Virus record (IMG/VR): IMGVR_UViG_3300048997_000046
Span: 1-45,533 of that record
Reading direction: 5' to 3' (one strand)
From: a virus
Length of the DNA stretch: 45,533 bases
Positions 2,600 through 45,533 of the stretch are shown here, in pieces (position 1 is the first letter of the stretch; each line of letters starts with the position of its first letter). A program made the translations under genes and the position numbers. The notes beneath the pieces are model-generated. The model searched no databases. It was not told the origin of the DNA and worked only from the letters and a program-made list of their open reading frames with translations.

Positions 2600-2947
2600 A
2601 TGCGGCAGCCCTCGCACGATAGCTGGCATTCGGACGCCCTCGTATGGCTTACGACGCATGACAGCCTGCGGGGGTTTCCGGGTGGGCTGCACGAAGGCGA
2701 CCCGCATCCCGGTTGGTTCAAGCGGCGGCTCGTGTCCCGTGGCCCGTGGATTCCTGCATCCATCACGCTCGAAGCGCCATTTGATCCTGAGACCGGCGAA
2801 CTGCTCGGCCCCGAAGAGTTCGCATGCGAGGTGATGGGCGAGCCACGCGACGTGATGGAAGAGTGGACTTGGCTCGCTGGTTCTCCAATCAGCAGAGAGA
2901 CTTACACAACAATGCTCGAAATCCTTTTTACAGGGGAGTTTGCATGA
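2600..2947 (+). CDS. Hypothetical protein, 115 aa
   Basis: ATG 2600 lies directly after the upstream TAG. Downstream ATGA coupling. Confidence 0.55.
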   Translation: MRQPSHDSWHSDALVWLTTHDSLRGFPGGLHEGDPHPGWFKRRLVSRGPWIPASITLEAPFDPETGELLGPEEFACEVMGEPRDVMEEWTWLAGSPISRETYTTMLEILFTGEFA

Positions 2948-3684
2948 ACAATCTGGAACTTTGGAACAAGCTGGAGCCTACCGATCCGTCGCACACAAAG
3001 CAATTCAATCGCAGCGGCGGGTTCAGCGGCACGGCAATCAATGCCACCTACATTCTCAAGCGGCTCACCGAAACGTTTGGGCCGTGCGGACGTGGCTGGA
3101 AATTCGCGCTGGAGGACGAACGGATTGAGGACGGTCACACACTCAAGACAGGCGACAGGGCCAAGCTGCACATCGTCCGCGGGCACCTCGAATACATGCA
3201 GGAAGGCCAATGGTTTCAAACCTCACCACAGTTCGGGCAGACCATGTTGGTGGGCGAGAACAAGTACGGCGCGTTCACCGACGAAGAAGCTCCGAAGAAA
3301 AGCATTACCGACTGCATCAGCAAGTGCGCCGTCACCATCGGCATCGGCGCCGATGTTCACCTCGGGCTGTTTGACGACAACAAGTACCTTAACCAGCGCA
3401 AGCAGGAAGAGGCTGCGAACGGAAATGGCGAACAGCACCCTATCGAGCGGCAGAATGGCGGCGCCGCAACGCTCAAGGCCGATCCTGTCGCGGCAGCAAA
3501 GACGTGGGTCAAAACCGCCAAGGAAACCATCAAGGCGTTCAACAGCCCCGAGGCTCTTTCGGCGTGGGAGGACGTGAACAAGAACACAATCGTCAGGCTG
3601 CACAGCATCGATCCGAAGGCCCACAAGGAACTGATGCAGGCCATTCAGGATCGGCATACCAACATCAGCCCGCTGGCAGCATAG
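2944..3684 (+). CDS. Single-strand annealing protein, Sak/Rad52-like
   Basis: Motifs INATYILKRLTETFGPCGRGWKF and KKSITDCISKCAVTIGIGADVHLGLFDD resemble the phage Rad52/Sak family (from memory, not searched). Confidence 0.6.
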   Translation: MNNLELWNKLEPTDPSHTKQFNRSGGFSGTAINATYILKRLTETFGPCGRGWKFALEDERIEDGHTLKTGDRAKLHIVRGHLEYMQEGQWFQTSPQFGQTMLVGENKYGAFTDEEAPKKSITDCISKCAVTIGIGADVHLGLFDDNKYLNQRKQEEAANGNGEQHPIERQNGGAATLKADPVAAAKTWVKTAKETIKAFNSPEALSAWEDVNKNTIVRLHSIDPKAHKELMQAIQDRHTNISPLAA

Positions 3685-3694
3685 GAGAACGGCA

Positions 3695-3931
3695 ATGGCA
3701 TATTTCGATTGCGTGATCTGGAAAGAGACGCAGACCGGCAAGAAATTCGCGGTCAAGATCGGCAGCGCAAAGCAGCGGGATGACGGTGGGTTCGCTGTTT
3801 ATCTCGATGCAAACCCGCTTGATGGCAAGTTCACTATCTCGCCACAGCGTGAACGAACGCAGGCAACCCCGTCACGCCCGGCCAGTGCAGCGTTCGACCG
3901 CAACAGTATGGATGAAGAGATTCCGTTTTGA
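3695..3931 (+). CDS. Small protein, 78 aa, ending in an SSB-type acidic tip (..NSMDEEIPF)
   Basis: ORF track with an AGGAG RBS. The C-terminus matches the bacterial SSB tail consensus D-D-D-I-P-F. It sits between the annealase and the NinB-like gene. Confidence 0.6.
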   Translation: MAYFDCVIWKETQTGKKFAVKIGSAKQRDDGGFAVYLDANPLDGKFTISPQRERTQATPSRPASAAFDRNSMDEEIPF

Positions 3932-4353
3932 GCGAGCTGTACGCAAAGCGGGTTGGCAACGCGCTGTATCCTGACGGCGATGAATCCATTGTGGAATTCG
4001 GGCGGCTGCCGTTCGGAAAACCGCTGCGGGTGGAAGTCCGCCAGCCCCGCAATGTGCAATTTCACAGGCTCTATTTTGCTCTGTGCAAGCGGATCGCGGA
4101 TGGCATCGGCTCTACCGCGGAGAACGTCAGCGATGTTCTCAAGGTCGCGACCGGCCACGTCACGATCATCCGCACGAAAAGCTATGGCGATGTGAAGATA
4201 CCGAAATCCATATCGTTTGCGAAGATGGATCAGACGGCATTCTCCGGTTTCTTCGAGCGCTGCGTGCAGGTGATCTATGCCGAGTGGGGGATCGAGCCGA
4301 ACGCGGTTGCCGATCTGCTCACCCCCACGCTGAGTGCGGAGGCGCGGGGGTAA
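3928..4353 (+). CDS. NinB/Orf-like or DUF1367-like recombination accessory protein (weak call)
   Basis: ATGA coupling. The pattern RNVQFHRLYFALCKRI ... ISFAKMDQTAFSGFFERCVQVI recalls NinB-type proteins. Confidence 0.4.
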   Translation: MSELYAKRVGNALYPDGDESIVEFGRLPFGKPLRVEVRQPRNVQFHRLYFALCKRIADGIGSTAENVSDVLKVATGHVTIIRTKSYGDVKIPKSISFAKMDQTAFSGFFERCVQVIYAEWGIEPNAVADLLTPTLSAEARG

Positions 4354-5504: not shown

Positions 5505-5732
5505 ATGAGCGAGCAGAAATGGAAACCGGCATCGACAGCACCAAGGGACGGCACTTGGCTTTTGCTGCGGGGCCGCAACATGGCGAATGAGCCGATGATT
5601 CCTGTCGTTGTCGCATGGAAGCCGCCCGGTTCTCCCAGTACCGGCTGGTGGGATAGCGGTAGTTTCAAGAATTGCGATTCACTGGCTACCGGCGATGCTG
5701 ACTGGCATCCGCTTCCCGACGAATCCGCTTGA
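5505..5732 (+). CDS. DUF551-like phage protein
   Basis: W-KP-STAPRDGTWLLL N-terminus typical of this small phage family. AGGAG RBS. Confidence 0.5.
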   Translation: MSEQKWKPASTAPRDGTWLLLRGRNMANEPMIPVVVAWKPPGSPSTGWWDSGSFKNCDSLATGDADWHPLPDESA

Positions 5733-5748
5733 GCCGAGGGCGCGGGAC

Positions 5749-6030
5749 ATGACTGCCATTGAAGAAATTGCTGCCGAGCGCAAACGCCAGGTCGAGCAGG
5801 AAGGCTGGGCGCCTGAACATGATGATGAACATGGCGGTGGCGAACTGGCAAAGGCTGCGGCTTGCTACGCGCTTGGACATCACACCGTCTCGAATATCGG
5901 CGGTGACCGCATCCATATCTGGCCGTGGGAAAATTGGGCATGGAAACCAACAACGCCACGCCGCAACCTCGTCAAAGCCGCTGCACTGATCGTTGCAGAG
6001 GTCGAGCGACTTGATCGGACAACCCCATGA
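5749..6030 (+). CDS. Conserved phage protein (ERKRQ..EGW..EHDDEH..GELAKAAACY motif)
   Basis: Internal ATG of ORF 5608..6030. I recognise the motif as recurrent in phages; function unknown. Confidence 0.55.
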   Translation: MTAIEEIAAERKRQVEQEGWAPEHDDEHGGGELAKAAACYALGHHTVSNIGGDRIHIWPWENWAWKPTTPRRNLVKAAALIVAEVERLDRTTP

Positions 6031-6908
6031 CCGCACAGAACCCCGCCTCCCCCGATGGGGAGTGGGTGATGGTGCCGAAACGTGCGCTGGATTGGTTGCT
6101 TGGCGAGGGGCCGGACGAACAGGGGCATTGGTTTGGAGACGGTGACGATCCAGCGGGACGGCGCGGGCGATATTGGTGGCGCACTCAATTCTGCAACATG
6201 CTCGCCTCAGCGCCCCGCCCCGATGTAGGGAAGGGTCAATGGTTTGCCTTACCTTACATCCTCAAGCAGGGACCGTGTGCTACGGAGAACTGTCTAGGCG
6301 AACCAGTATGGCGCTTCGAGGGCGGCGGCGTTGGTTCGGACTACTGCTTGAACTGCCATGCAAAACTCACTTCGGCACCACCTCGCCCCGATGCAGACGC
6401 AAAGCTGGCGGATGATCTGGCACGTCGATTTCTCGAAGCGGCCGGCTGGTGCGAAGGAACCCAGCTTGAGAAGCCATACTCGGATGCAGACTACATCGCG
6501 CTGTTCCGCGAGGCCGCATCCCTCACCGAACGCGCCGTATCTCTGGAGAAAACAGCCTCAGAAGCGTTGTGGACGTTTTGCTACGATGTGGCGACAGCGT
6601 TTCAGCATGATAACTCTCACGCGGGGATAGAGTTCTTTAAGCGGGCCAAAAGACTAGGTGTTCTCCTAGAATCCGAAGCTGGCGACAGCGTTCGTGAAGG
6701 GTTGCAGTCTGCGTCCGTGTGGCGACCACATACGCCAGAAGAATGCGAACAATTCTGCCAAGCTTCCACAGCCTCAGAAGCGTTGCAGGAATGCGAGAGG
6801 CTGAGGGCGGCGCTGAAATCGGCTGATGAAGTCTTGGCCTTATATCTCTTTCCGCCCGGTTCCCCAATTAGAATGCAGATCAGCCGCGCACTAGGAGCAG
6901 CCAAATGA
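6027..6908 (+). CDS. Hypothetical protein, 293 aa
   Basis: ATGA coupling at both ends. Confidence 0.65.
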   Translation: MTAQNPASPDGEWVMVPKRALDWLLGEGPDEQGHWFGDGDDPAGRRGRYWWRTQFCNMLASAPRPDVGKGQWFALPYILKQGPCATENCLGEPVWRFEGGGVGSDYCLNCHAKLTSAPPRPDADAKLADDLARRFLEAAGWCEGTQLEKPYSDADYIALFREAASLTERAVSLEKTASEALWTFCYDVATAFQHDNSHAGIEFFKRAKRLGVLLESEAGDSVREGLQSASVWRPHTPEECEQFCQASTASEALQECERLRAALKSADEVLALYLFPPGSPIRMQISRALGAAK

Positions 6909-7231
6909 GTGAAGTTCCGCTGTGGCAGCAGGTTATTGATCTATTTGACCGGCATGGACTTCCGCCGCCGCCTTGGCGATTGCGCGATGAGCTTGTGGTG
7001 CATTGGGATGAGTACAATAAACGCCACGCATTGCACGCCGAAATCGCCACGCTCCGCAGCCAGCTTGCCGAAGCGCGAGAGGAACGGCGTGAAGATTTGA
7101 AGAGGGCCTTTGTCGCTGGTTGCTGCGCCGTGCTGACATGGACGAAATCAGGAATGCCTCAAGACGATCTTGATGAGGCGGGTTACGACTACGCTGCAAC
7201 CGTCGCCCTCTCCCCCACCACGCCAGCATGA
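6905..7231 (+). CDS. Hypothetical protein, 108 aa
   Basis: ATGA coupling at both ends. Confidence 0.6.
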   Translation: MSEVPLWQQVIDLFDRHGLPPPPWRLRDELVVHWDEYNKRHALHAEIATLRSQLAEAREERREDLKRAFVAGCCAVLTWTKSGMPQDDLDEAGYDYAATVALSPTTPA

Positions 7232-7458
7232 ACACTTTAACCAAATGGTGGCGAAGGATGCGAGTAAGTTTCGTATGGTTCCTGTTTACGTGGACAGCAC
7301 ATGGAACCTCTGGAATGTTCCGAGACATCATTCCAGCAAGACTAAATTATAACTGGCTTGGGCGCAGATGTATGAAGATTATAGAAGAAATCGAACGCCT
7401 TCGCAGCCAGGTCGCAGACCTGCGCCGCTCGGCATCCAACCCGAAGCCGGAGGAATAG
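7228..7458 (+). CDS. Possible small membrane protein, 76 aa (the 5' half is AT-rich and may be noncoding)
   Basis: ATGA coupling supports start 7228. However, 7240-7370 is atypically AT-rich and carries an 8-bp hairpin. An alternative start is 7372. Confidence 0.4.
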   Translation: MNTLTKWWRRMRVSFVWFLFTWTAHGTSGMFRDIIPARLNYNWLGRRCMKIIEEIERLRSQVADLRRSASNPKPEE

Positions 7459-7460
7459 GA

Positions 7461-7571
7461 ATGCGTCAACTGATCGAATGGCTGCATTTCCACGTCGCGC
7501 TCCGTATGCCGATGTGGCTGTCACGTTATCATTGGTGGTGGACGTTCGTTGGAAGCGCAAGGAAGGAATAG
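7461..7571 (+). CDS. Trp/aromatic-rich mini-protein, 36 aa
   Basis: GGAGGAATAGGA-ATG junction, the same architecture as the next gene junction (GGAAGGAATAGG-ATG). Confidence 0.4.
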   Translation: MRQLIEWLHFHVALRMPMWLSRYHWWWTFVGSARKE

Positions 7572-7572
7572 G

Positions 7573-7884
7573 ATGCCAGCAGAATCCATGATCGAGCGAA
7601 TTGCCAAAGCCATGTGGGAGAGAACCCATGATGGCGTGTGGCCTGATACGGCGGAAGCTGACGCTACGGAGTGTGTGACCGCCGATGGGAAACCGGCGAA
7701 GCTGACGACCGCAGATATTTACCGGGAAGATGCCCGCGCCGCTATCCCAGCCATGATGCCAACTCAAGCCGAATGCGAGGCGTTGGCAGAGCATTTCGAA
7801 AATGGCGAAACGCGCGGACATTGGACGCAGGTACGCTCACTATTCAAGGCGCACATCGACTCCGCGCTCAAGGAAGGGGAGTAG
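7573..7884 (+). CDS. Hypothetical protein, 103 aa
   Basis: Internal ATG of ORF 7549..7884 with an upstream GGAAGGA. Confidence 0.55.
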   Translation: MPAESMIERIAKAMWERTHDGVWPDTAEADATECVTADGKPAKLTTADIYREDARAAIPAMMPTQAECEALAEHFENGETRGHWTQVRSLFKAHIDSALKEGE

Positions 7885-7888
7885 GGGG

Positions 7889-9112
7889 ATGGCTGACTTC
7901 ATTTTTCATCAAGCCGTTGGCGAAGCGCCAATTAAGACTTGGACCAAGGGCGTCCAGATCGAAGATCAGGCGATGGCGCAGCTTCACAACGTCGCCAAGC
8001 TGCCGTTCATTCACAAGCACGTTGCGGCCATGCCGGACGTGCATTGGGGCATGGGCGCAACCATCGGCAGCGTGATCGCCACGAAAGGTGCCGTCGTGCC
8101 TGCCGCCGTAGGTGTGGACATCGGCTGCGGAATGATGGCGATGCTGACCACGCTTAAAGCCGAACACCTACCGGACAATCTACATCAAACGCGGCTAGAC
8201 ATCGAGTCCGCCGTGCCGCATGGGCGCACGGACAATGGTGGCGCAAACGACCGCGGCGCGTGGGGCGAGCTGCCACCAGAGGCGGAGAACCGTTGGCAAC
8301 CGCTTGCGGAACGATACGCGGCCATTCTCGCCAAACATCCGAAGGCCAAGGCATATAATTCAGCCCGCCATATCGGAACGCTCGGAACTGGCAATCACTT
8401 CATCGAACTCTGCCTCGATGAAAGCGATTTCGTATGGGTGATGCTGCACTCCGGCTCGCGCGGCGCTGGCAACAAGATCGGCATGTACTTCATCGAAAAG
8501 GCCAAGGAGGAAATGCGCCGGTACTTCATCGATAAATTCCTACCGGATCAGGACTTGGCTTATCTGGTGGATCATACCGAACTGTTCGATGACTACGTGA
8601 ACGCCGTGGAATGGGCGCAGGACTTCGCGCTGGAAAACCGCAAGGCAATGATGCACGCCACACTGAACGCGGTACGCAAGTCGCTGCCGCCGTTCTTCGT
8701 GACGGACATGGCTGTGAACTGCCATCACAACTATATCTCGCGAGAGAACCACTTTGGCACGAATGTGCTGGTGACGCGCAAGGGCGCTGTTCGTGCGCGA
8801 AAAGGCGACCTTGGCATCATTCCCGGCTCGATGGGCACCGGCAGCTTCATCGTGCGCGGCAAGGGTAATCACGAGAGCTTCCACTCCTGCTCGCACGGTG
8901 CCGGCCGCGCTATGTCGCGCGGCGCCGCAAAGAAAGCGATCAGCATGGAACAGCACGCCGCCGCCATGAAGGGCATCGAAGCGAGGCTGGATGCCGATGT
9001 GATCGATGAAAGTCCAGCGGCGTACAAAGACATTGGCGCCGTCATGGCCGCGCAGTCAGACCTTGTGGATGTCGTTCACCGGCTCCGGCAAGTCGTGAAT
9101 GTGAAGGGCTAA
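7889..9112 (+). CDS. rtcB: RNA 3'-phosphate/5'-OH ligase RtcB
   Basis: Motifs MPDVHWGMGATIG, GVDIGCGM, GTLGTGNHFIEL, HSGSRGAGN, NCHHNY and SHGAGR are all present in canonical order. 407 aa from ATG 7889. Confidence 0.9.
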   Translation: MADFIFHQAVGEAPIKTWTKGVQIEDQAMAQLHNVAKLPFIHKHVAAMPDVHWGMGATIGSVIATKGAVVPAAVGVDIGCGMMAMLTTLKAEHLPDNLHQTRLDIESAVPHGRTDNGGANDRGAWGELPPEAENRWQPLAERYAAILAKHPKAKAYNSARHIGTLGTGNHFIELCLDESDFVWVMLHSGSRGAGNKIGMYFIEKAKEEMRRYFIDKFLPDQDLAYLVDHTELFDDYVNAVEWAQDFALENRKAMMHATLNAVRKSLPPFFVTDMAVNCHHNYISRENHFGTNVLVTRKGAVRARKGDLGIIPGSMGTGSFIVRGKGNHESFHSCSHGAGRAMSRGAAKKAISMEQHAAAMKGIEARLDADVIDESPAAYKDIGAVMAAQSDLVDVVHRLRQVVNVKG

Positions 9113-9149
9113 CCCCCATGTCCCACACCCAGCGACAAGGATTGAGTAG

Positions 9150-9536
9150 GTGACGGCGCAGCTTCGCATATCCCCTGCTTACAGTATGGCCGAAGCCGCC
9201 GGGCTCTTGAGAATCAGCCGCCGGGCGTTGCAGGATTTGGTGAAGGTGCATCCGTTCTATTACCAGAACGGGAAGCGAAAGCTGTTTGCCGAGGAAGATG
9301 TATTGGCGTTGCGCACGGTCATGCGCGAGGGTGAAGAAAAATGCCGCTCAAACTTATCCCGCCGAATCTCAAAAGGCGCTGCCCGTTCTACACAGTCCGG
9401 GGAACATATCTCAGGGTCCGCGTGGACCGAAGTACTAAGACGGGCTCGCGAACGATCGCAGCCGGACTGCTCAAAGCATGGCGGGACGACATCGAACGTG
9501 AAGCCATTTCCCGGCCGGGCGAACCCACGTTCATAG
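9150..9536 (+). CDS. xis: Excisionase/MerR-like HTH protein (3' end uncertain; overlaps int by 196 nt)
   Basis: GTG start. The HTH YSMAEAAGLLRISRRALQDLV sits directly upstream of the integrase. Confidence 0.5.
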   Translation: MTAQLRISPAYSMAEAAGLLRISRRALQDLVKVHPFYYQNGKRKLFAEEDVLALRTVMREGEEKCRSNLSRRISKGAARSTQSGEHISGSAWTEVLRRARERSQPDCSKHGGTTSNVKPFPGRANPRS

Positions 9537-10357
9537 ATGCCTCTGTGGCCTATGTCTCCATGCACGGTGAACAACGGTTTCTGCCCCCGATAGTCGAAGC
9601 ACTCCGCACGACCGCCCTCAGCAAGATCGATCAGACGATGATCGATGAACTGGCCTTGCGCCTTTACCCGACAGCTTCCGCGCAAACTCGCAACCGGCAG
9701 GTCTACACCCCTGTCTCGGCCGTCCTGAAACACGCCAAGATCGAGTGGGAGCTGAAGCGGCCGAAGGGCTGGCGCGGTTCCTCCCGAACGACATGGCTGA
9801 AGCCGAACGAAGCCTTTGCTGCGATACGGGCGGCAAAGAAGGCGGATGCCGAGTTTGGGATATTCCTCACCCTGCTCTGCTACACTGGCTTGCGCCTGAG
9901 CGAAGCGCTGGGCCTTCGGTGTGAAGCCATCGAGCTGCAGGATGGCTTTGCCTACGTGCCACAGACCAAGAATGAAGACCCGCGTGCGGTATTCCTGCCG
10001 CCTGCCGTTGTGGCCGCTCTGGCAGGCCACCCGAAGGGCATGGACCGAAAGGGGCGTGTATTCCGCTTCCGCAAGAACGGGCGCCTGTACGCGCTCCTGC
10101 GGGCCACCGAGAAGGCATCCCGACAGAAACTCACCTTCCACCTGTTTCGGCATACCTGGGCCACATGGATGCGCCGCTATGGCGGACTGGACATCGATGG
10201 CCTCATGGCGACGAAGGCATGGAAAGACCCCGCGTCCGCTCGCCGGTACACCCATGTTGTGGTGAGCGAAGAGAGCCGGAAGGCTGCGCTGTTGCCGATC
10301 GACAATGGCGGACTCGACGTGAACATCAAGCGAAAGACCAAGCGCAATGCGGCTTAG
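9341..10357 (+). CDS. int: Tyrosine recombinase / phage integrase
   Basis: GLRLSEAL (Arg), HLFRHTWATW (H-x-x-R) and ARRYTHV (Tyr) motifs. It is adjacent to the tRNA-derived attP. Confidence 0.9.
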   Translation: MPLKLIPPNLKRRCPFYTVRGTYLRVRVDRSTKTGSRTIAAGLLKAWRDDIEREAISRPGEPTFIDASVAYVSMHGEQRFLPPIVEALRTTALSKIDQTMIDELALRLYPTASAQTRNRQVYTPVSAVLKHAKIEWELKRPKGWRGSSRTTWLKPNEAFAAIRAAKKADAEFGIFLTLLCYTGLRLSEALGLRCEAIELQDGFAYVPQTKNEDPRAVFLPPAVVAALAGHPKGMDRKGRVFRFRKNGRLYALLRATEKASRQKLTFHLFRHTWATWMRRYGGLDIDGLMATKAWKDPASARRYTHVVVSEESRKAALLPIDNGGLDVNIKRKTKRNAA

Positions 10358-10362
10358 GTTCG

Positions 10363-10410
10363 CCCTTCACACGGGAGGGGTCACAGGTTCAATCCCTGTC
10401 GCGCCCACCA
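10363..10410 (+). other. attP core: 3' portion of a tRNA-Val(CAC), from the anticodon loop to CCA
   Basis: ccc-TTCACAC-gggag gggtc ACAGG-TTCAATC-CCTGT cgcgccc-a-cca. No matching 5' acceptor or D-arm lies upstream. Confidence 0.75.
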
Positions 10411-10474
10411 GCCTAAACCATTGTCATCAAAGCAGATTATCCGGTTTCGGCCGCATTTCAGCACCACCCCCTAT

Positions 10475-10513
10475 TCGGCACAGAACAGCGTACAATGGCA
10501 GAACTCGGCACAG
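10475..10513 (+). promoter_or_regulatory. Two direct TCGGCACAG repeats 30 bp apart; candidate integrase arm-type sites
   Basis: Exact 9-mers at 10475..10483 and 10505..10513, in the noncoding arm next to the attP core. Confidence 0.35.
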
Positions 10514-10554
10514 GTGGACGTGGACTTTCGACGGACTCCGTTCGCGAGTCGTGC

Positions 10555-10791
10555 CTACCGATGCACAAAGCCTGACACGATGGCGGCGACCAAAGAGACA
10601 ATGCCGCCTAGAAACGTACCCACCATCATAAACAGGCCAAGCAGCGCCTTCCGTCCGCCGCTCATAGCGGCGAGCGTGCCGAGGATGGATTTGATGTCGC
10701 CCTTCATCTCAGCAATGTTGGCGCGGAATTCGCGGTTTTCCTGCTCAAGCGTTGCGAGTCGCTCGGCATCTGTCGGGTAGTACATAGTCAC
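10555..10791 (-). CDS. Tail-anchored small membrane protein, 78 aa (coiled N-terminus, C-terminal TM); lysis-associated or moron
   Basis: ORF track (GTG 10791 or ATG 10785, with GAGGGG upstream). Hydrophobic segment LLGLFMMVGTFLGGIVSLVAAIV. Confidence 0.55.
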   Translation of the reverse strand: MTMYYPTDAERLATLEQENREFRANIAEMKGDIKSILGTLAAMSGGRKALLGLFMMVGTFLGGIVSLVAAIVSGFVHR

Positions 10792-10836
10792 TGAACCCCT
10801 CGCACGGAACGTCCTGATGCGCCCCGGTGTTTACAG

Positions 10837-10989
10837 ATGATGGAATCCTTCGTGCGCGAATACCTGGTAGGCGGCCTTGTTCTGGCCGGCGTGATGTTCA
10901 AGCTGCTTTCCGTGATGGCACGGCTTTCCGCGGCGGAGGCGAGGATGAGACGGGTCCGCATCGCTTTGGCCTCTATGCCTGTTCGCTAG
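10837..10989 (+). CDS. Possible 50-aa hydrophobic peptide (MMESFVREYLVGGLVLAGVMFKLLSVMA..), convergent with the lysis genes
   Basis: Hand-translated open frame below the track cutoff. Its stop overlaps the minus-strand stop (CTAG). No clear Shine-Dalgarno. Confidence 0.25.
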   Translation: MMESFVREYLVGGLVLAGVMFKLLSVMARLSAAEARMRRVRIALASMPVR

Positions 10990-11366
10990 GTCTGAGAGCG
11001 ATTGAGGGCGGCGGTTTCGGTGCGTTCCTGTGCATCCGTCTGGCCGGCCGGTGAAGCTTGGACGATGACGGTCGCCGACTTCGCACCTGCCGGTTTAGTC
11101 CATGTGCTGTTGGCTGAGAATGTCGTGATGCTCGGCAGAATTAGTTGCACCAGTTCCACAATCTCTTCGGTGATCTGCGCGGAGCGGGTCTGAACGCCAT
11201 GCCGCAGCGTAGCGCCACCGAGAAACACCAGTACCCAATCGACAGCGCCGGGGATGTGGAAGGCGACGACATGCGTTGCCTCCAATCCCTGAACGATGCC
11301 GGTGAGCAATCCGGCCGCGCAGATGAAGTACGTTTTCCAGCCGTTGGCGAAGCTGAGGAACTGCAT
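10986..11366 (-). CDS. Holin-like protein with two TM segments
   Basis: ATG 11366 shares its A with the upstream TGA. TMs WKTYFICAAGLLTGIVQGL and AVDWVLVFLGGATL. It follows the endolysin and the lipoprotein. Confidence 0.5.
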   Translation of the reverse strand: MQFLSFANGWKTYFICAAGLLTGIVQGLEATHVVAFHIPGAVDWVLVFLGGATLRHGVQTRSAQITEEIVELVQLILPSITTFSANSTWTKPAGAKSATVIVQASPAGQTDAQERTETAALNRSQT

Positions 11367-13756: not shown

Positions 13757-16700
13757 TTCGTGCTACCGATCATCTTCGACCCGGCTTGCGCCAGTCCGAT
13801 CATCTCGCCGACGATACGATCCGTGTTTTGACGCTTTTCATCGACGGTCATTTTTGCATCGTCATTGATCGCCTGAATAGCCGTGCGCTGAATGCCGAGC
13901 GTGGCACGCATACCGATCAGCGTAGAATAGAGCCGCGCCTTACCGGCATCCTGAACCATGATGCTGGGATCGCCACGCTTGAGCGCAAGGAATTCATTGG
14001 CGTGTGCTTCCTCCAGCGTTTTCATGTCATCGTAGAACGTCTCGATGGGTTGCGAGCCAGTCTGCGGATTTCGCACGAAGAAACTCTGCACGAACGGCAG
14101 ATCGCTCATCTCCCACGGCTTGTTGTGAACCGCGAAGGGTGCGCCAAGGGCTTTCATCACGTCGATGCCGAGCGTTCCGGCCCAGCCACGAACATAATTG
14201 TCCACCACGATAGGCGAGACATCCGCGAGATTGACGCCTCCATGAGGGCCGAGTACGCGCGCCAGCGCCTTCGCAGGCTCCGTCGTGGCCTCGGTATATT
14301 GCATGTCGCCGGACGCATCTTTGAGCGAATCGGGAATAAGTTGCTTGCCGGAGAAGAAGCTGTAATTGGCCGCACCTTCGATGATCGGCGTGATGACCGG
14401 CGGCAGGTTCTTCGGCAGTATCTCGCTCATGTCGCGGAAGATGTGATCGAATGCGTGCGGGTTGTTCTCGAATTCATGTTCGATGAACCGTTCCAGCGGA
14501 ATACCAACCAGCGGCCCGATTACATACGGCTTGCCGATGCGGAAACGCTGGCCTGCTATCGGCGGCGTGATGAAGTAGTTATCCCGTTCCCATTGCGGGA
14601 GGTCTGTGTAGCGCTTGCCGGCCGGCAGGTCTTTGTCGGCCTGCCGATTGGCGAGATAGAGTCCAATCTGCGGAACGGCCAAGCCCATGATGACATATAG
14701 CGATGTGTTGAGCGCACGCCCTGCTGCCCACGCGCCCTTACCCTGTCGTAAACCGAGAATGTCGGCCTTGAAGAACGGGACCCATTTGGCCCATGTATTC
14801 GCCACGTTGGCGATGAATTTCTCGTCGTAGTCGAGATACGCCTTGCGGGCGTTCATCGCGGCCTTCATCGGCTCCGCGCCTTTGCCTACCGCGTTCTTGT
14901 AGTAGCCAATGCGGGAGGCTTGCGCCAAACGATCCGTGAGAATTTGAGCCAGCTCAAGCGGATGCCGCACCGTGTTCCACAATCGATTGGTGACGCCGGT
15001 TTCTTCCAACAGCTTCTGCGCATCCGTGGTGAGAACGCTGCGGTCGATGTCCACGATGGAACCGGACAATCCGCCCGTGCGAGCCAGTTCCCAAAACGCA
15101 TCGCCTTTGCCAAAGGAATCCATCAGGCCGCGCATCATCGTGATAAACGGTGGCGGATGAGACGGATCGGCAATGAAGGCTGTGAGTTGATGCTTCAGGG
15201 CAATGCGCGGTCCGAATGTCGGATCGCCTGCAATACCGGCGCGCGCAATCTTCGCCGGGAACTGCACAACCTTGTCAATCAAGGTTGCCTCGCCCGGTGA
15301 ATCCGCAGCACGATAAAGCCGCGCCACGTTCTCATCGTTTGCCTGCCAGACTTCGGCTTTGCCGTTCCGGTAGAAGATAAATTGCTGCTTCCCGAGCCCC
15401 TTGGCGCCTTGCTGAATAATAGGTTCAAATGCCTTGGCTTCCTTGTCCGTCAGGCCATAGGGCTTGAACACACTGCTTCCGGGTTCGGCCAATGTAGCCT
15501 TGGCTTCAGGCGCCGCGAGCCGCTTCACATCCGGGGATTGCGGGATGCCTTCCTGCGCGCCGACGATAGCGCCTGCCGCACGGTTGCGATCTGCAAAGCG
15601 AATGAGCATTCGCGCGTTATCGATGTCGGCCAGCCACGGATCGATGATCTTCTTGTCCGAGCCTTCCATGCGGGCGATCGGATTGACCGCACGGAAGCTC
15701 TTGCGGGAGCCGGACTTGAATGGCTGGTCGTCGCCCATCAAACGGCGCAATGAAACGTGGCTGGTGTTTGCCGCGATCATCGCGTCCATCTGTTTCTGCG
15801 AAATGCCGCCGGAATCGCGCACATAGGTAAGCACGCTGTTCTTCCATTGCTGCATGAGGTCATTGGCTTTGGCGTATTTCTTCAGGTTCGGATCGGCCGC
15901 GTTGGCTTCGGCTTCCTTCGCGCCGCCGGGAAAGACTCCGGTATCGATACCCTGCTTCGCCTTTTCGATGGTCCGAAGTGCCACGCGATAGGTATTGAAC
16001 TCATCCTGATTGCCGCCGATGCGCTTGATTTCATCGGCCACATCCTTGAGCGCCGGGCCTTCCTTTTCCTTGAAGGTGACGGGATCGAACGGACCGCGGA
16101 AGAAGAAATGATCCGCCCGATTCTCGCTCGCATAGGTGGAGCGGGCCATGTCTTCGATGCCAATGTCCGTTGTGGGGTCCAGCAGGCCGCGAGTCTTGAG
16201 TTCGGTATCGACGCGGCGCGCGGCGTCCAGCTCCATTTCGAGGCCGAGCAGCGCAGGCCGGTGCGCAGTCGAGGGTTCGCCAATCGACTCCTTGAAGCGT
16301 GAGACTCGCATGGAGGTATCCAGCGTGAATGGATCATCGCCGCCGGCGTGACCGCTGATCTGTTTTGGTGGTTCGCCGCCCGCACCGCCGCTTCCGTTTG
16401 TGGGGCCTTTCGTTCCGCCGCCCATCGAACGGTTGCGCGCGAGATATTCCTGCGTCTCAAGCGGCAAGCCCGCTTCGGAACGGTCTGCATCCACGCGGGC
16501 GTATTCCCAGCCATGCTTGCCCTGTTCGGCTTCCAGTCGTGTACCTGGTCCAGCGGTCAGCAGTTTTGCAGCTCTGCCAGGTCCTGCATTGTAGGCCGTC
16601 AGAATGGCGTCCTCATCTCCCCGGAAGCGGCGATAGAGGTCCGTGAGAATAGTCCGTGCGGCGGTTTCGTTATATGACGGGTCCGTCAACTTTGTGGGAT

Positions 16701-34467: not shown

Positions 34468-34535
34468 AATTTGGGCCGGATTCGAACCAGCAACCTCCGC
34501 CTCAGGACGGCACTCTACCATTGAGCTACCAATGA
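34468..34535 (-). tRNA. tRNA-like element / degenerate tRNA (canonical D- and T-arms, 4-nt anticodon loop, imperfect acceptor stem)
   Basis: Minus strand: TCATTGG TA GCTC-AATGGTA-GAGT G CCGTC-CTGA-GGCGG AGGTT GCTGG-TTCGAAT-CCGGC CCAAATT. Only 4 of 7 acceptor pairs form. Confidence 0.45.
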
Positions 34536-41725: not shown

Positions 41726-42136
41726 GCGCCCCCGCCCCCGTGCCGGCGCATGGGATTCCGTATCGTGCCGTGGCGGTGGAAAACACCGGCAGCGAGTGCA
41801 GCGAACCAAAGTGTGATGCCCCACCACACCATGTTCAGCGCCGTACCGAATAGATTTTACGAGCGTCAGGATCGAAGCGCGCGCATCCGATCGTGAGCGG
41901 TCCGTTTCGACCCGATGAACAGCGAGATTCAATCAGCGCCAGAACCTCACGCGCGGTCAGGACTCCGGTAACCCTACCGGCCGGAACCGATTGCGTCCGC
42001 GAAGGGTCTGCGCCTACGCGATCTGGAATGGATGAGCAGGCGCAGTCGCTAACCGCGCGGGTCGAGGCACTGGAAGATGCCTTGGTGCTGCTTGTCGGCG
42101 CGTTGATGCGCGTCGGGGTGCCCGTGCGCGAGGAGT

Positions 42137-42367
42137 TCATCGCTGCACTCCAGGCAGCCATCGCAGCCGCGCGCCAAACCAATCAGCGTAGCGAGAAAAT
42201 CGCCGTGCTGAGGCTTTTCGCGGACATGGCAGAAGCAGCGCGCGGGCTTGAGCCAGACGGTCGATAAGTTCGGCGTAGGGACGGCCATCGATTAACGAAG
42301 ATTGAGAGGTAACGTTACCGGCGCGATTTGCTGCCATTGCTGGCGCGCATTGGTTAAGGGCGCTCAT
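42137..42367 (-). CDS. Possible early protein, 76 aa (conflicts with plus-strand ORF 42028..42267)
   Basis: ATGA coupling to the Cro-like gene, but codon bias is weak in the overlapped half. Confidence 0.35.
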   Translation of the reverse strand: MSALNQCAPAMAANRAGNVTSQSSLIDGRPYAELIDRLAQARALLLPCPRKASARRFSRYADWFGARLRWLPGVQR

Positions 42368-42600
42368 GCGGCGGCTTGTTGTTTTTGGTTAGGAATGTGA
42401 GCCGGTTTGGGGGGCGCGTAGCCACGAATGAAGGCGCGAACTTTATCAACGGTGGCGAGCGTCAGCCCTCCGCCTTCCCGTAACCGTGTCACAAATTTTC
42501 CGTCGTTCACGGCCAATCGGCCGAACGTGGATTCGGTCATTTGCACTTCACGGCGCGCAAGGAACGCCTCGATCTCAACGAGAAGTTCTTGTGTGGTCAT
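42364..42600 (-). CDS. cro: Cro-like early regulator
   Basis: Divergent from the repressor across the operator region. First gene after the TTGACA-17-CATATT promoter. Confidence 0.6.
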   Translation of the reverse strand: MTTQELLVEIEAFLARREVQMTESTFGRLAVNDGKFVTRLREGGGLTLATVDKVRAFIRGYAPPKPAHIPNQKQQAAA

Positions 42601-42607
42601 GCTGGCG

Positions 42608-42684
42608 AATATGATGGGCTATTGCCCAAGTGTCAATGGGCTATTGCCCAAGTGACTATCATGCTTCCAGTGGGCAATGTCCCA
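42608..42684. promoter_or_regulatory. Immunity operator/promoter region: three operators plus a rightward (minus-strand) promoter
   Basis: TGGGCTATTGCCCA at 42615..42628 and 42637..42650 (22-bp phasing), and the variant TGGGCAATGTCCCA at 42671..42684. Minus-strand -35 TTGACA at 42631..42636 and -10 CATATT at 42608..42613. Confidence 0.7.
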
Positions 42685-42687
42685 CTC

Positions 42688-43368
42688 ATGAAACTCGACT
42701 GGCGAGAGCGGCTCAAAAGGGCGATTGAGCGGAAACAAACGACCATGAAGGCGCTGTCTAAGGGTGCCGGATTGGGCGAAACCTACGTTCGGGACATTCT
42801 TGAGCGGGACCGTGATCCGTCTGTGGAAAATGCAAAGCGGCTCTGCGCCACCCTCAATACTTCATATGAATCGATCTTCGGCGAGGGGCCGCTAGAAGAT
42901 CAGATGCCCCCTATGCGCGGGAACATCTTTGAATTTGGTGGTATCGAATACGCGCGAATCCCAGTCTATGACATCAGGTTTGCGGCCGGCACCGGAAATG
43001 TGGAGGAAGGCGATGAAGAACCCATTGACCATTATCTGGTCAGCATGAACACCCTTCGCGCTGCAACGGACGCCCCGCTAACGCAGCTAGCAATTTTTCA
43101 AGCCCACGGCGATTCCATGAAGGAGACTATCAACGGCGGGGATTGGGTTTTCGTGGATCGCCGGAAAACTAATCTCCGAATCCCTGGAATCTATGCCCTG
43201 ACCGTAGACGGCGAGAGGCTCCTGAAGCGTGGTCACCAGCATCTTGAAACCGGCGTTGTGACCTTGATTTCGGACAACACGGCCTATGAGCCGCGACGGC
43301 AAACAATTAAGCACCCAGAAAGGCTTAACATCATCGGCCGCGTCTTTTTGTCAATCCGGCGCCATTAG
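42688..43368 (+). CDS. cI: CI-like repressor (XRE HTH + S24 LexA-type autopeptidase)
   Basis: HTH MKALSKGAGLGETYVRDIL, Ser motif HGDSM and Lys motif LLKRG. An alternative start is 42661. No Shine-Dalgarno before either start. Confidence 0.85.
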   Translation: MKLDWRERLKRAIERKQTTMKALSKGAGLGETYVRDILERDRDPSVENAKRLCATLNTSYESIFGEGPLEDQMPPMRGNIFEFGGIEYARIPVYDIRFAAGTGNVEEGDEEPIDHYLVSMNTLRAATDAPLTQLAIFQAHGDSMKETINGGDWVFVDRRKTNLRIPGIYALTVDGERLLKRGHQHLETGVVTLISDNTAYEPRRQTIKHPERLNIIGRVFLSIRRH

Positions 43369-45001: not shown

Positions 45002-45523
45002 ATGAACGAGCGACCCAAGGTAATCCAGTTTACGGGTTCTGCGCCGCGCAATGACCATCGCTGGACTACTGATGAGCTAAAGCAACTCATCTCCATGTGG
45101 ATGGCTGGCGACGAAGTTGACAACATCGCAGTTGTATTCGGCGTCACACCGCGAGGCATCAACCGCCAGATTCAGCGGATGCGTGCCAACGGTATTTTGG
45201 TCCCGCGTCGTAAGCGTGGCCACCGCGCCGGTCGCAGCAACCAGCTTTGGACTCCAGAAGAGGTTGAATACCTCGTTCGTCGCCGGAACGAGCGCGCGTC
45301 CACCGAAGAAATCGCAAACGAACTCAACCGAACATTCAATGCCATTCAGGGCATGGTTGAAAGGCTCAAAGCAGAGGGCGTGATCGTTCGCTCATTTGGA
45401 CGCGGGAAGCATCGGCTCTGGAACGCCGAGCGGCTTCGCGACGCGATCTCTTTGCGCGGACTTAGCGACAAGGCTGAAACCGATCCATCGCGGCTTCTAA
45501 GCAATACCGGCGAAACACCATAG
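45002..45523 (+). CDS. GcrA/Myb-like DNA-binding protein with two tandem W-x-x-E-E...HTH repeats
   Basis: WTTDELKQLISMWMAGDEVDNIAVVFGVTPRGINRQIQRM and WTPEEVEYLVRRRNERASTEEIANELNRTFNAIQGMVERL resemble the GcrA N-terminal domain. Confidence 0.5.
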   Translation: MNERPKVIQFTGSAPRNDHRWTTDELKQLISMWMAGDEVDNIAVVFGVTPRGINRQIQRMRANGILVPRRKRGHRAGRSNQLWTPEEVEYLVRRRNERASTEEIANELNRTFNAIQGMVERLKAEGVIVRSFGRGKHRLWNAERLRDAISLRGLSDKAETDPSRLLSNTGETP

Positions 45524-45533
45524 CAGCCTAAGG
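45407..45533 (+). repeat. Terminal direct repeat, copy 2 (identical to 1..127)
   Basis: Base-for-base identity with 1..127. Confidence 0.97.

Follow-up and report, generated by a model that had tools for sequence, protein, structure and literature searches.

An intact RtcB-type RNA ligase gene beside the xis-int module of a temperate phage genome and its possible role in counter-defence RNA repair

RNA-repair ligases in phages and bacteria

Phage T4 repairs the tRNA anticodon-loop nicks made by PrrC, which carry 2',3'-cyclic phosphate and 5'-hydroxyl ends, by means of its Pnkp and Rnl1 enzymes. The resealing of such nicks is the same logic that we propose for the phage described here, being proven for T4 and a proposal in the present case, and the enzymes themselves are unrelated; those of T4 heal the ends and then seal 3'-OH to 5'-phosphate with ATP, whereas RtcB ligases seal 3'-phosphate to 5'-OH directly with GTP. 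In the RtcB2-PrfH system an RtcB paralogue religates ribotoxin-cut 16S rRNA without RtcA; the present phage likewise carries an RtcB without RtcA, but has no PrfH gene. The rtcBA-rtcR operon of E. coli and Salmonella encodes a ligase of the same family (about 408 aa) in which the metal, GTP and histidine-nucleophile residues are identical to those of the phage protein. Unlike these bacteria, the phage is devoid of the RtcA cyclase, the RtcR sigma-54 activator and the Ro/Y-RNA genes, and expression of its rtcB would be phage-controlled, whereas the enterobacterial operon is damage-sensing.

Among phages, the RtcBs of large genomes (PHROG 1075; Cp1R7A-A1, Lacusarx, Erythrobacter XM05 and vB_EliS-L02) and those of Pseudomonas and Erwinia jumbo phages, the latter at about 60% on the amino acid level, belong to the same family and have the same length, 97-100% of the protein being aligned. 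In the literature on jumbo phages, Lacusarx, Rhodococcus phages and Adephagia the gene products are given as ligases for tRNA splicing or repair, and they are assumed to mend tRNAs against defences aimed at these molecules; indeed, RNA repair against such defences is the usual assumption for phage RtcBs. These phages are mostly virulent, have genomes of 130-300 kb and carry rtcB in or near tRNA arrays. In contrast, the gene studied here lies next to xis-int in a 45-kb temperate genome that, unlike the large phages with their tRNA arrays, is tRNA-less except for a degenerate relic. Temperate or tRNA-less carriers have been described in actinophages, namely the temperate cluster K mycobacteriophage Adephagia, whose RtcB is gp84, and the Rhodococcus Cluster CR phages, which have rtcB and lack tRNA genes, so that the present combination is not new in kind. 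Nonetheless, these phages are distant in hosts and sequence and their rtcB is placed in the right arm, not beside int. Phage rtcB is thus common, also in temperate and tRNA-less phages, and the present gene is one more; it adds a temperate, environmental and probably alphaproteobacterial phage to the many that bear RtcB. What this phage offers is a clean small temperate case, partner-less and tRNA-less, for the widely assumed counter-defence role.

The ligase gene, its operon and the phage genome

The window, i.e. the whole stretch of 45,533 nucleotides that was analysed (IMG/VR virus record IMGVR_UViG_3300048997_000046), contains the features listed in Table 1.

Table 1. Features of the phage genome discussed in the text
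Feature	Coordinates	Strand	Basis and remarks
Exonuclease	2824-3684	+	PHROG 7838 / PHROG 319 (exonuclease and NinB/Orf pair)
NinB/Orf	3928-4353	+	PHROG 7838 / PHROG 319 (exonuclease and NinB/Orf pair)
Upstream ORF, 111 aa, no family	7549..7884	+	ORF list
rtcB, intact	7889..9112	+	Predicted 407-aa RtcB-family 3'-phosphate/5'-hydroxyl RNA ligase; Pfam, PHROG, PDB homologues
xis-like HTH_17 ORF	9150..9536	+	Pfam HTH_17, E=1.2e-5, 25.9 bits, slightly below the 27-bit cut-off
Tyrosine integrase (int)	9341..10357	+	Pfam PF00589, E=1.6e-18
attP core, 3' part of tRNA-Val(CAC) from anticodon loop to CCA	10364..10410	+	Sequence
Degenerate tRNA-like element	34471..34532	-	Rfam RF00005, 41.2 bits
cro-like ORF	42049-42288	-	Divergent from the CI-like gene; PHROG 4 / PHROG 6201 (CI-like and cro-like pair)
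CI-like repressor	42541..43368	+	PHROG 4 / PHROG 6201 (CI-like and cro-like pair)

The rtcB reading frame runs through its 407 codons without interruption. A longer alternative, starting at ATG 7802, runs into the upstream gene; the start at 7889 is preferred because of this overlap, of the GGAG-rich Shine-Dalgarno sequence preceding it, and of the nearest homologues, which are 404-410 aa long and align with the product from residue 1. Pfam profile PF01139 (RtcB) matches the protein over its whole length (profile positions 1-426 of 426; E=1.3e-124) with 417 bits against a curated cut-off of 27, and PHROG 1075, 'tRNA splicing ligase', matches it with E=5e-144. The product can also be aligned to the RtcBs of known structure from T. 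thermophilus and P. horikoshii (PDB 2epg and 1uc2/4dwq), and catalytic residues were located from the alignment to these PDB sequences together with the motif positions. The metal ligands are D50, D77, C80, H170, H187 and H280 (D65, D95, C98, H203, H234 and H329 in P. horikoshii) and the GTP contacts N169, F171, E173 and K406 (N202, F204, E206 and the C-terminal lysine). The histidine to be guanylylated is H336, within the SCSHGAGR stretch that holds the HGAGR motif; it corresponds to H404 of P. horikoshii and, presumably, to H337 of E. coli. Further conserved residues that could be placed are H52, R191, N281 and R340. The catalytic columns are invariant across 162 aligned relatives, H280 being kept in 161 of the 162, and dN/dS against the seven closest relatives is 0.03-0.10, with dS saturated. 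The intact frame and the purifying selection, which is strong, establish rtcB as a real gene.

A preliminary description made from the DNA letters had announced an intact RtcB with all signature motifs, to be checked by a profile search and to be given up if catalytic His or Cys residues were found missing upon alignment. The full-length PF01139 match, the PHROG 1075 match and the presence of every catalytic residue, with C80, H170, H187, H280 and H336 among them, bear this description out. On the other hand, the protein reaches the cut-off of neither curated subfamily, with 160.7 bits against 407 for the E. coli RtcB equivalog (NCBIfam NF007153 / PRK09588) and 127.9 bits against 271.8 for the PrfH-linked RtcB2 (TIGR03073). 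It is a bona fide family member outside both subfamilies, for which a GTP- and Mn2+-dependent 3'-phosphate/5'-OH ligase activity is predicted; in view of these scores, the substrate preference of either subfamily can be carried over to it only with reserve.

The contig begins and ends with the same 127 nt, an exact direct repeat of the kind left by a circular assembly, and the window therefore represents a complete genome of about 45.4 kb. The genome is that of a temperate phage with rtcB as the last of the genes in its cI-side operon; both the lifestyle and the direction of the operon follow from the CI-like repressor gene, which is on the same strand as rtcB and divergent from the cro-like ORF. 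The plus-strand operon runs on from the CI-like gene over the artificial contig ends and includes, besides the exonuclease and NinB/Orf genes, an HNH protein and several unknowns, with stop and start codons overlapping at many junctions, whereas the minus strand encodes the cro-like ORF, RusA, HNH, small and large terminase, portal, major head, tail, fibre and endolysin proteins, the endolysin gene stopping near 10.5 kb. CI, a divergent cro, recombination genes, xis, int and attP after int make up a lambdoid-like early-left layout. That int directly adjoins the lysis end of the late operon shows the genome in its excised (attP) form. The attP core differs in one base from the 3' part of the intact tRNA-Val(CAC) next to a related integrase in locus L171, and this fragment recurs in the related loci L169, L184 and L209. 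The tRNA-Val(CAC) of the host should end ...GGTTCAATCCCTGTCGCGCCCACCA, and the host is probably an alphaproteobacterium. A megablast search with positions 20000-44000 retrieved no DNA-level relatives among GenBank phages.

The start of rtcB lies 4 nt past the stop codon of the 111-aa ORF, this gap making co-transcription of the two likely, and its own stop codon precedes the xis-like ORF by 37 nt; the latter shares 196 nt with int, out of frame. This agrees with the initial placement of rtcB as the last early-left gene directly before xis-int. Scans of rtcB, the operon and the immunity region for promoters and terminators gave counts at or below shuffled expectation, the sigma-70 consensus possibly not being that of an alphaproteobacterial host, and no terminator-like signals bracketing rtcB were predicted. 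The 4-nt and 37-nt gaps, and the fact that neither a promoter nor a terminator is predicted, speak for rtcB being transcribed together with the operon. The 111-aa ORF has no Pfam or PHROG match, and tblastn against 163 rtcB loci found no homologue of it adjoining a related rtcB; it is thus not a conserved partner. A wider search for such a partner, with 22 window proteins against the same 163 loci by tblastn, returned essentially no common neighbours, and the idea of a conserved rtcB partner was rejected.

Known RNA-repair partners were searched for in the whole genome with Pfam and PHROG on the 30 largest ORFs and with Pfam on the other 143 ORFs, down to a length of 66 aa. These scans yielded neither RtcA, RtcR, archease, Pnkp or TROVE/Ro nor PrfH, Rnl1/Rnl2 or another RNA ligase, and the co-location with RtcA, RtcR or Ro/TROVE by which an Rtc repair system is recognised does not occur here. 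Neither a phage-encoded RNase or toxin able to create RtcB substrates (Pfam) nor defence-system proteins (PADLOC, 143 ORFs) were detected. ARAGORN found no tRNA gene in the genome; Rfam gave a single match, a tRNA-like element located about 25 kb from rtcB that keeps the D-arm, the T-arm and the anticodon stem intact and has a 4-nt anticodon loop (CUGA) and just four acceptor pairs. The preliminary description thus holds for the genome as a whole, both where it stated that no RtcA, archease, Pnkp or Ro/Rsr partner is visible and where it stated that the sole tRNA-shaped RNA cannot decode.

The minimum-energy fold of the tRNA-like element is not a cloverleaf and is no better than that of shuffled sequences (z=0.3), and its anticodon arm has no exact-pattern match in IMG/VR. 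The best local matches are one tRNA-Ile(GAU), two tRNA-Pro(UGG) and two tRNA-Arg. A descent of the element from an rtcB-linked tRNA-Pro could not be shown, the best matches being mixed and the isotype not assignable. Nor was there a tRNA remnant near rtcB: a sensitive Rfam search of positions 6800-10700 gave two sub-threshold chance matches alone.

Relatives and genomic setting of phage rtcB

RtcB is encoded in 693 GenBank phage records as detected by tblastn, including 221 records of Mycobacterium, 63 of Bacillus, 58 of Listeria and 30 of Caulobacter phages, and virulent phages are among the carriers. The best matches in GenBank phages are the proteins of Mesorhizobium phage Cp1R7A-A1 (68%) and of Erythrobacter phages and Sphingobium phage Lacusarx (66%). 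In a large protein collection the closest RtcBs are 80-89% identical and mostly encoded on phage contigs. The closest of all (P0003/L001, 89%) is a lone chromosomal gene between flgH and dksA on a 403-kb contig; L002 and L003 are phage contigs, and the IMG/VR loci L084-L087 follow at 84-86%. A neighbour-joining tree built from 162 sequences places the window RtcB in a tight clade of eight, formed with just these relatives and with six members on phage contigs, well apart from the large chromosomal Caulobacterales clade (64-66% identity). The phylogeny that had been proposed as a check thus groups the protein with phage RtcBs rather than with those chromosomal ones.

DNA similarity to rtcB relatives is confined to the limits of the ORF (7895-9118), and the genes flanking related rtcBs are unrelated to the neighbours in the window. 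From the opposite side, we retrieved 48 IMG/VR loci with an integrase related to that of the window (24-55% identity, all but two 36-55%), many of them at prophage ends; the out-of-frame overlap of xis and int is shared by about 40 of the 48, and in none of them does rtcB occur within 7 kb upstream of int. As homology ends at the ORF limits and related xis-int phages are without the gene, rtcB appears to be gene-sized, variable accessory cargo upstream of a conserved xis-int module.

In 80 IMG/VR loci the surroundings of related rtcBs were surveyed up to a distance of 3.5 kb, with 146 ORFs of 200-520 aa. The commonest Pfam family among these ORFs was tyrosine integrase, with 11 members (12 by iterative HMM search), and at least 11 of the 80 loci have an integrase near rtcB. 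In at least seven loci (L085, L086, L098, L152, L154, L159 and L160) the integrase gene is downstream of rtcB and reads in the same direction; the integrases of these loci are not homologous to that of the window at the tblastn level, and the int-proximal placement of rtcB has therefore arisen repeatedly. These findings document that rtcB has recurrently landed where the early operon borders int, and they agree with a view of the int/att-proximal region as a site for cargo in general.

Possible roles of the phage ligase

We lean, with modest confidence, towards lytic-phase counter-defence RNA repair by a stand-alone ligase, and infer the activity, expression timing, substrates and benefit of the phage RtcB as follows. 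By homology to the E. coli and P. horikoshii enzymes, H336 would be guanylylated using GTP and Mn2+; the GMP would then be passed to the RNA 3'-phosphate, a 2',3'-cyclic phosphate having been opened beforehand, and the attack of the 5'-OH end would seal the break as the last step. The location of rtcB at the int-proximal end of the cI-side operon suggests that the protein is most probably produced early in infection and also once a prophage is induced. It would reseal tRNA, and possibly rRNA, cut by metal-independent RNases of host defence or competitor toxins, candidate opponents being PrrC/RloC-type anticodon nucleases, HEPN RNases, colicin-like or CDI tRNases and MazF-type toxins, and the resealed RNAs would keep translation going for phage development. 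The missing RtcA and Pnkp would be no obstacle, because RtcB needs no healing enzyme; Tanaka and Shuman reportedly observed in 2011 that the E. coli protein ligates unaided in vitro.

The chemistry of the ends narrows the range of candidate opponents. Ends with 2',3'-cyclic phosphate and 5'-OH come from PrrC, RloC, toxins like colicins E5, D and E3, MazF and HEPN enzymes. Nucleases of the PIN, HNH and Toprim types depend on metal and leave 5'-phosphate and 3'-OH ends, which RtcB is unable to seal; VapC is a PIN nuclease, and retron-associated effectors are of the HNH or Toprim types. P2-OLD, too, has been reported to leave 5'-phosphate/3'-OH ends. The nucleases against which the phage had originally been suggested to be tried, PrrC, RloC, VapC and retron-type, are thus retained in their first two members, with their 2',3'-cyclic phosphate/5'-OH ends, and dropped in the last two, which are metal-dependent and generate 5'-phosphate/3'-OH ends.

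Counter-defence repair would fit the phage-borne clade, which includes virulent phages, in which the enzyme can have no role outside the lytic phase, the tRNA linkage and the occasional Ro and Pnkp neighbours of the relatives, and the packing of rtcB into an operon read early or upon induction. It has also been reported that prophage induction in Salmonella generates 2',3'-cyclic phosphate RNA signals, which we count in favour of a repair role. In the literature that we searched there is no experimental demonstration of a phage RtcB overcoming a defence system. Overexpression of the mycobacteriophage Adephagia RtcB inhibited growth of the host, and the effects of RtcB on the cell may therefore be more complex.

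The gene might instead be a case of lysogenic conversion, in which rtcB expressed from the prophage would protect the tRNA or rRNA of the lysogen from ribotoxins, from its own toxin-antitoxin RNases or from stress, the ribotoxins envisaged being those of competitors, such as colicins and CDI or T6SS RNases. An int/att-proximal position is typical of prophage cargo, and the integrases found as the commonest identifiable neighbours of related rtcBs, the absence of the gene from related xis-int phages and the lone chromosomal state of the closest homologue all point the same way. However, position by itself is no proof of expression, rtcB is tightly packed in the operon with no bracketing promoter- or terminator-like signal, and the same clade is also present in virulent and large phages; we regard a lysogen-expressed function as rather doubtful, albeit worth keeping in mind. 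Still less probable, and in our opinion unlikely, is that RtcB serves the RNA biology of the phage itself, acting on phage tRNAs or tRNA-like RNAs or on RNAs cut by a phage nuclease, with the window perhaps retaining the ligase of a module that once also included a tRNA. When the relatives are de-replicated at 95% RtcB identity, tRNA-Pro accounts for 21 of the 50 rtcB-adjacent tRNAs and for 4 of the 131 that are not adjacent (Fisher odds ratio 23, p=3e-10), most of the linked tRNA-Pro have an atypical A37, and the tRNA-like element of the window has kept its D-arm, T-arm and anticodon stem. Yet no tRNA or tRNA remnant adjoins rtcB in the window, the element is remote from it, of no assignable isotype and folds no better than shuffled sequences, no phage RNase or toxin was found by Pfam or PADLOC, and a shared function in keeping translation running would explain the tRNA linkage equally well.

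Two further readings carry very little weight in our assessment. RtcB could act on DNA ends within the recombination module, either joining 3'-phosphate to 5'-OH or capping 5'-phosphate with GMP, as has been reported for E. coli RtcB and M. xanthus RtcB3. Such a role might be thought of from an operon that also contains the exonuclease, NinB/Orf and HNH genes, and RtcB enzymes with activities on DNA 3'-phosphates have reportedly been documented by the Shuman laboratory. The relatives, however, go with tRNAs, Ro and Pnkp and not consistently with recombination genes, and the neighbours of rtcB are not conserved, which leaves such a DNA-directed role very improbable. That rtcB is a passenger without current function is scarcely credible: its absence from phages with related xis-int modules could be read in this sense, but the ORF is intact with its full catalytic set, the low dN/dS denotes constraint, and the gene recurs across many phage lineages. 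Repair of cleaved RNA during lytic growth is the reading that we favour.

Genes for tRNAs beside related rtcBs deserve a description of their own. Of the 163 loci, 36 have a tRNA within 200 nt of rtcB (30 of 142 in the de-replicated set), and the two genes nearly always share a strand; among the 56 adjacent tRNAs of these loci 22 are tRNA-Pro, 18 with the UGG and 4 with the CGG anticodon. In the de-replicated set the adjacent tRNA-Pro is upstream of rtcB in 11 cases and downstream in 10. Bacterial tRNA-Pro normally has G37; 18 of the 22 rtcB-adjacent tRNA-Pro have A37 and the C1-G72/A73 ends are kept. Among the protein-coding neighbours surveyed in the 80 IMG/VR loci, up to 3.5 kb from rtcB, two ORFs have TROVE/Ro and one has a Pnkp phosphatase domain. 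It is tempting to speculate, though at very long reach, on a mobile and recurrent phage module that would combine RtcB with a nuclease-resistant tRNA-Pro(UGG) bearing A37 against an undescribed tRNA-Pro anticodon nuclease, the tRNA half having here been replaced by, or decayed into, the anticodon-less tRNA-like RNA, which might serve as a decoy, with RtcB mending the tRNA of the host. The flanking of rtcB by tRNA-Pro(UGG) with A37 points to a specific tRNA as the target of some defence, and this linkage, which lies mostly outside the window, is the sole aspect of the locus that might lead somewhere new. The closest relatives on long contigs, L001, L002 and L003, all have a tRNA-Pro adjacent to rtcB.

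tRNA genes flanking rtcB in related loci

Among loci that hold homologues of the 407-aa RtcB-family ligase, phage tRNA-Pro genes, mostly with the anticodon UGG, flank rtcB non-randomly. Once the loci had been collapsed at 95% RtcB identity, tRNA-Pro accounted for 21 of the 50 tRNAs lying within 200 nt of rtcB, whereas of the 131 non-adjacent tRNAs 4 were of this type (Fisher p=3e-10). The adjacent tRNA-Pro stood upstream of the gene 11 times and downstream of it 10 times. Of the 22 adjacent tRNA-Pro present before de-replication, 18 carry A37 in place of the canonical G37 and retain the C1-G72/A73 ends of proline identity. Our literature search retrieved no paper reporting such a linkage.

The closest RtcB homologue (89% amino acid identity) is found on a 403-kb chromosomal contig (locus L001), in a bare cassette bordered by flgH and dksA. 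Its three parts are a tRNA-Pro(UGG) with C33 and A37, rtcB, and an unusual tRNA of 75 nt that was typed as 'Ser(AGA)' and lacks a long variable arm. No phage genes were found near this cassette, which has the look of a small module, either mobile or a relic. In the related phage contig L003 an IS605 OrfB/TnpB (Cas12f-like) gene lies directly upstream of rtcB and tRNA-Pro, this position hinting at either an insertion hot spot or the mobilisation of the rtcB/tRNA-Pro cassette. In the gammaproteobacterial MAG contig L005, the full rtcB is followed some 7 kb further downstream by another, incomplete rtcB-like stretch that has 72% nucleotide identity to window positions 8520-9108.

Coordinates of the features in the window and of sites in related loci
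Feature	Position	Strand	Remarks
Direct terminal repeat	1-127 and 45407-45533		exact, 127 nt
Uncharacterised ORF	5608-6030	+	140 aa; PHROG matches
xis-like ORF/int overlap	9341-9536	+	196 nt, out of frame
attP core	10364-10410	+	3' part of tRNA-Val(CAC), anticodon loop to CCA
tRNA-like element	34471-34532	-	Rfam 41 bits; ARAGORN negative
L001 tRNA-Pro/rtcB/tRNA cassette	9904-11298		ERZ26871208:contig_36940
L003 IS605 OrfB/TnpB gene	8619-9887
L005 partial rtcB-like stretch	15865-16453
Related rtcB loci with a flanking tRNA-Pro (tRNA at <=200 nt)	L001-L003, L081, L084, L091, L092, L097, L100, L108, L109, L114, L130, L131, L141, L142, L144, L150, L156, L158

Integration module and genome ends

The attP core begins 6 nt downstream of the int stop codon, and in L171, one of the loci with a related integrase, the integrase gene is adjoined by an intact tRNA-Val(CAC) whose 3' part differs from the core by a single base. 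An overlap of xis and int homologues comparable to that in the window is seen among L164-L209 and is kept in about 40 of the 48 loci with a related integrase, so that neither reading frame seems to have been given up. The terminal repeat marks the contig as the assembly of a circular genome, with a unique length of 45,406 bp.

A tRNA-like element and an uncharacterised phage domain

The tRNA-like element has well-paired D, anticodon and T stems, an anticodon loop of only 4 nt (CUGA), an otherwise perfect 7-bp acceptor stem spoiled by a 2-nt insertion in its 3' strand, and no CCA. Its best matches, Ile-GAU, Pro-UGG and Arg-ACG, do not point to a single isotype. The minimum-energy fold is no better than those of shuffled sequences, and an exact-pattern scan of IMG/VR recovered no copies.

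Nine different PHROG families of unknown function have a C-terminal domain that matches the C-terminal ~90 residues of the uncharacterised ORF, with E-values as low as 3e-38; this is a widespread uncharacterised phage domain. A homologue of this ORF is also located upstream of rtcB in the Pseudomonas fluorescens locus L063.
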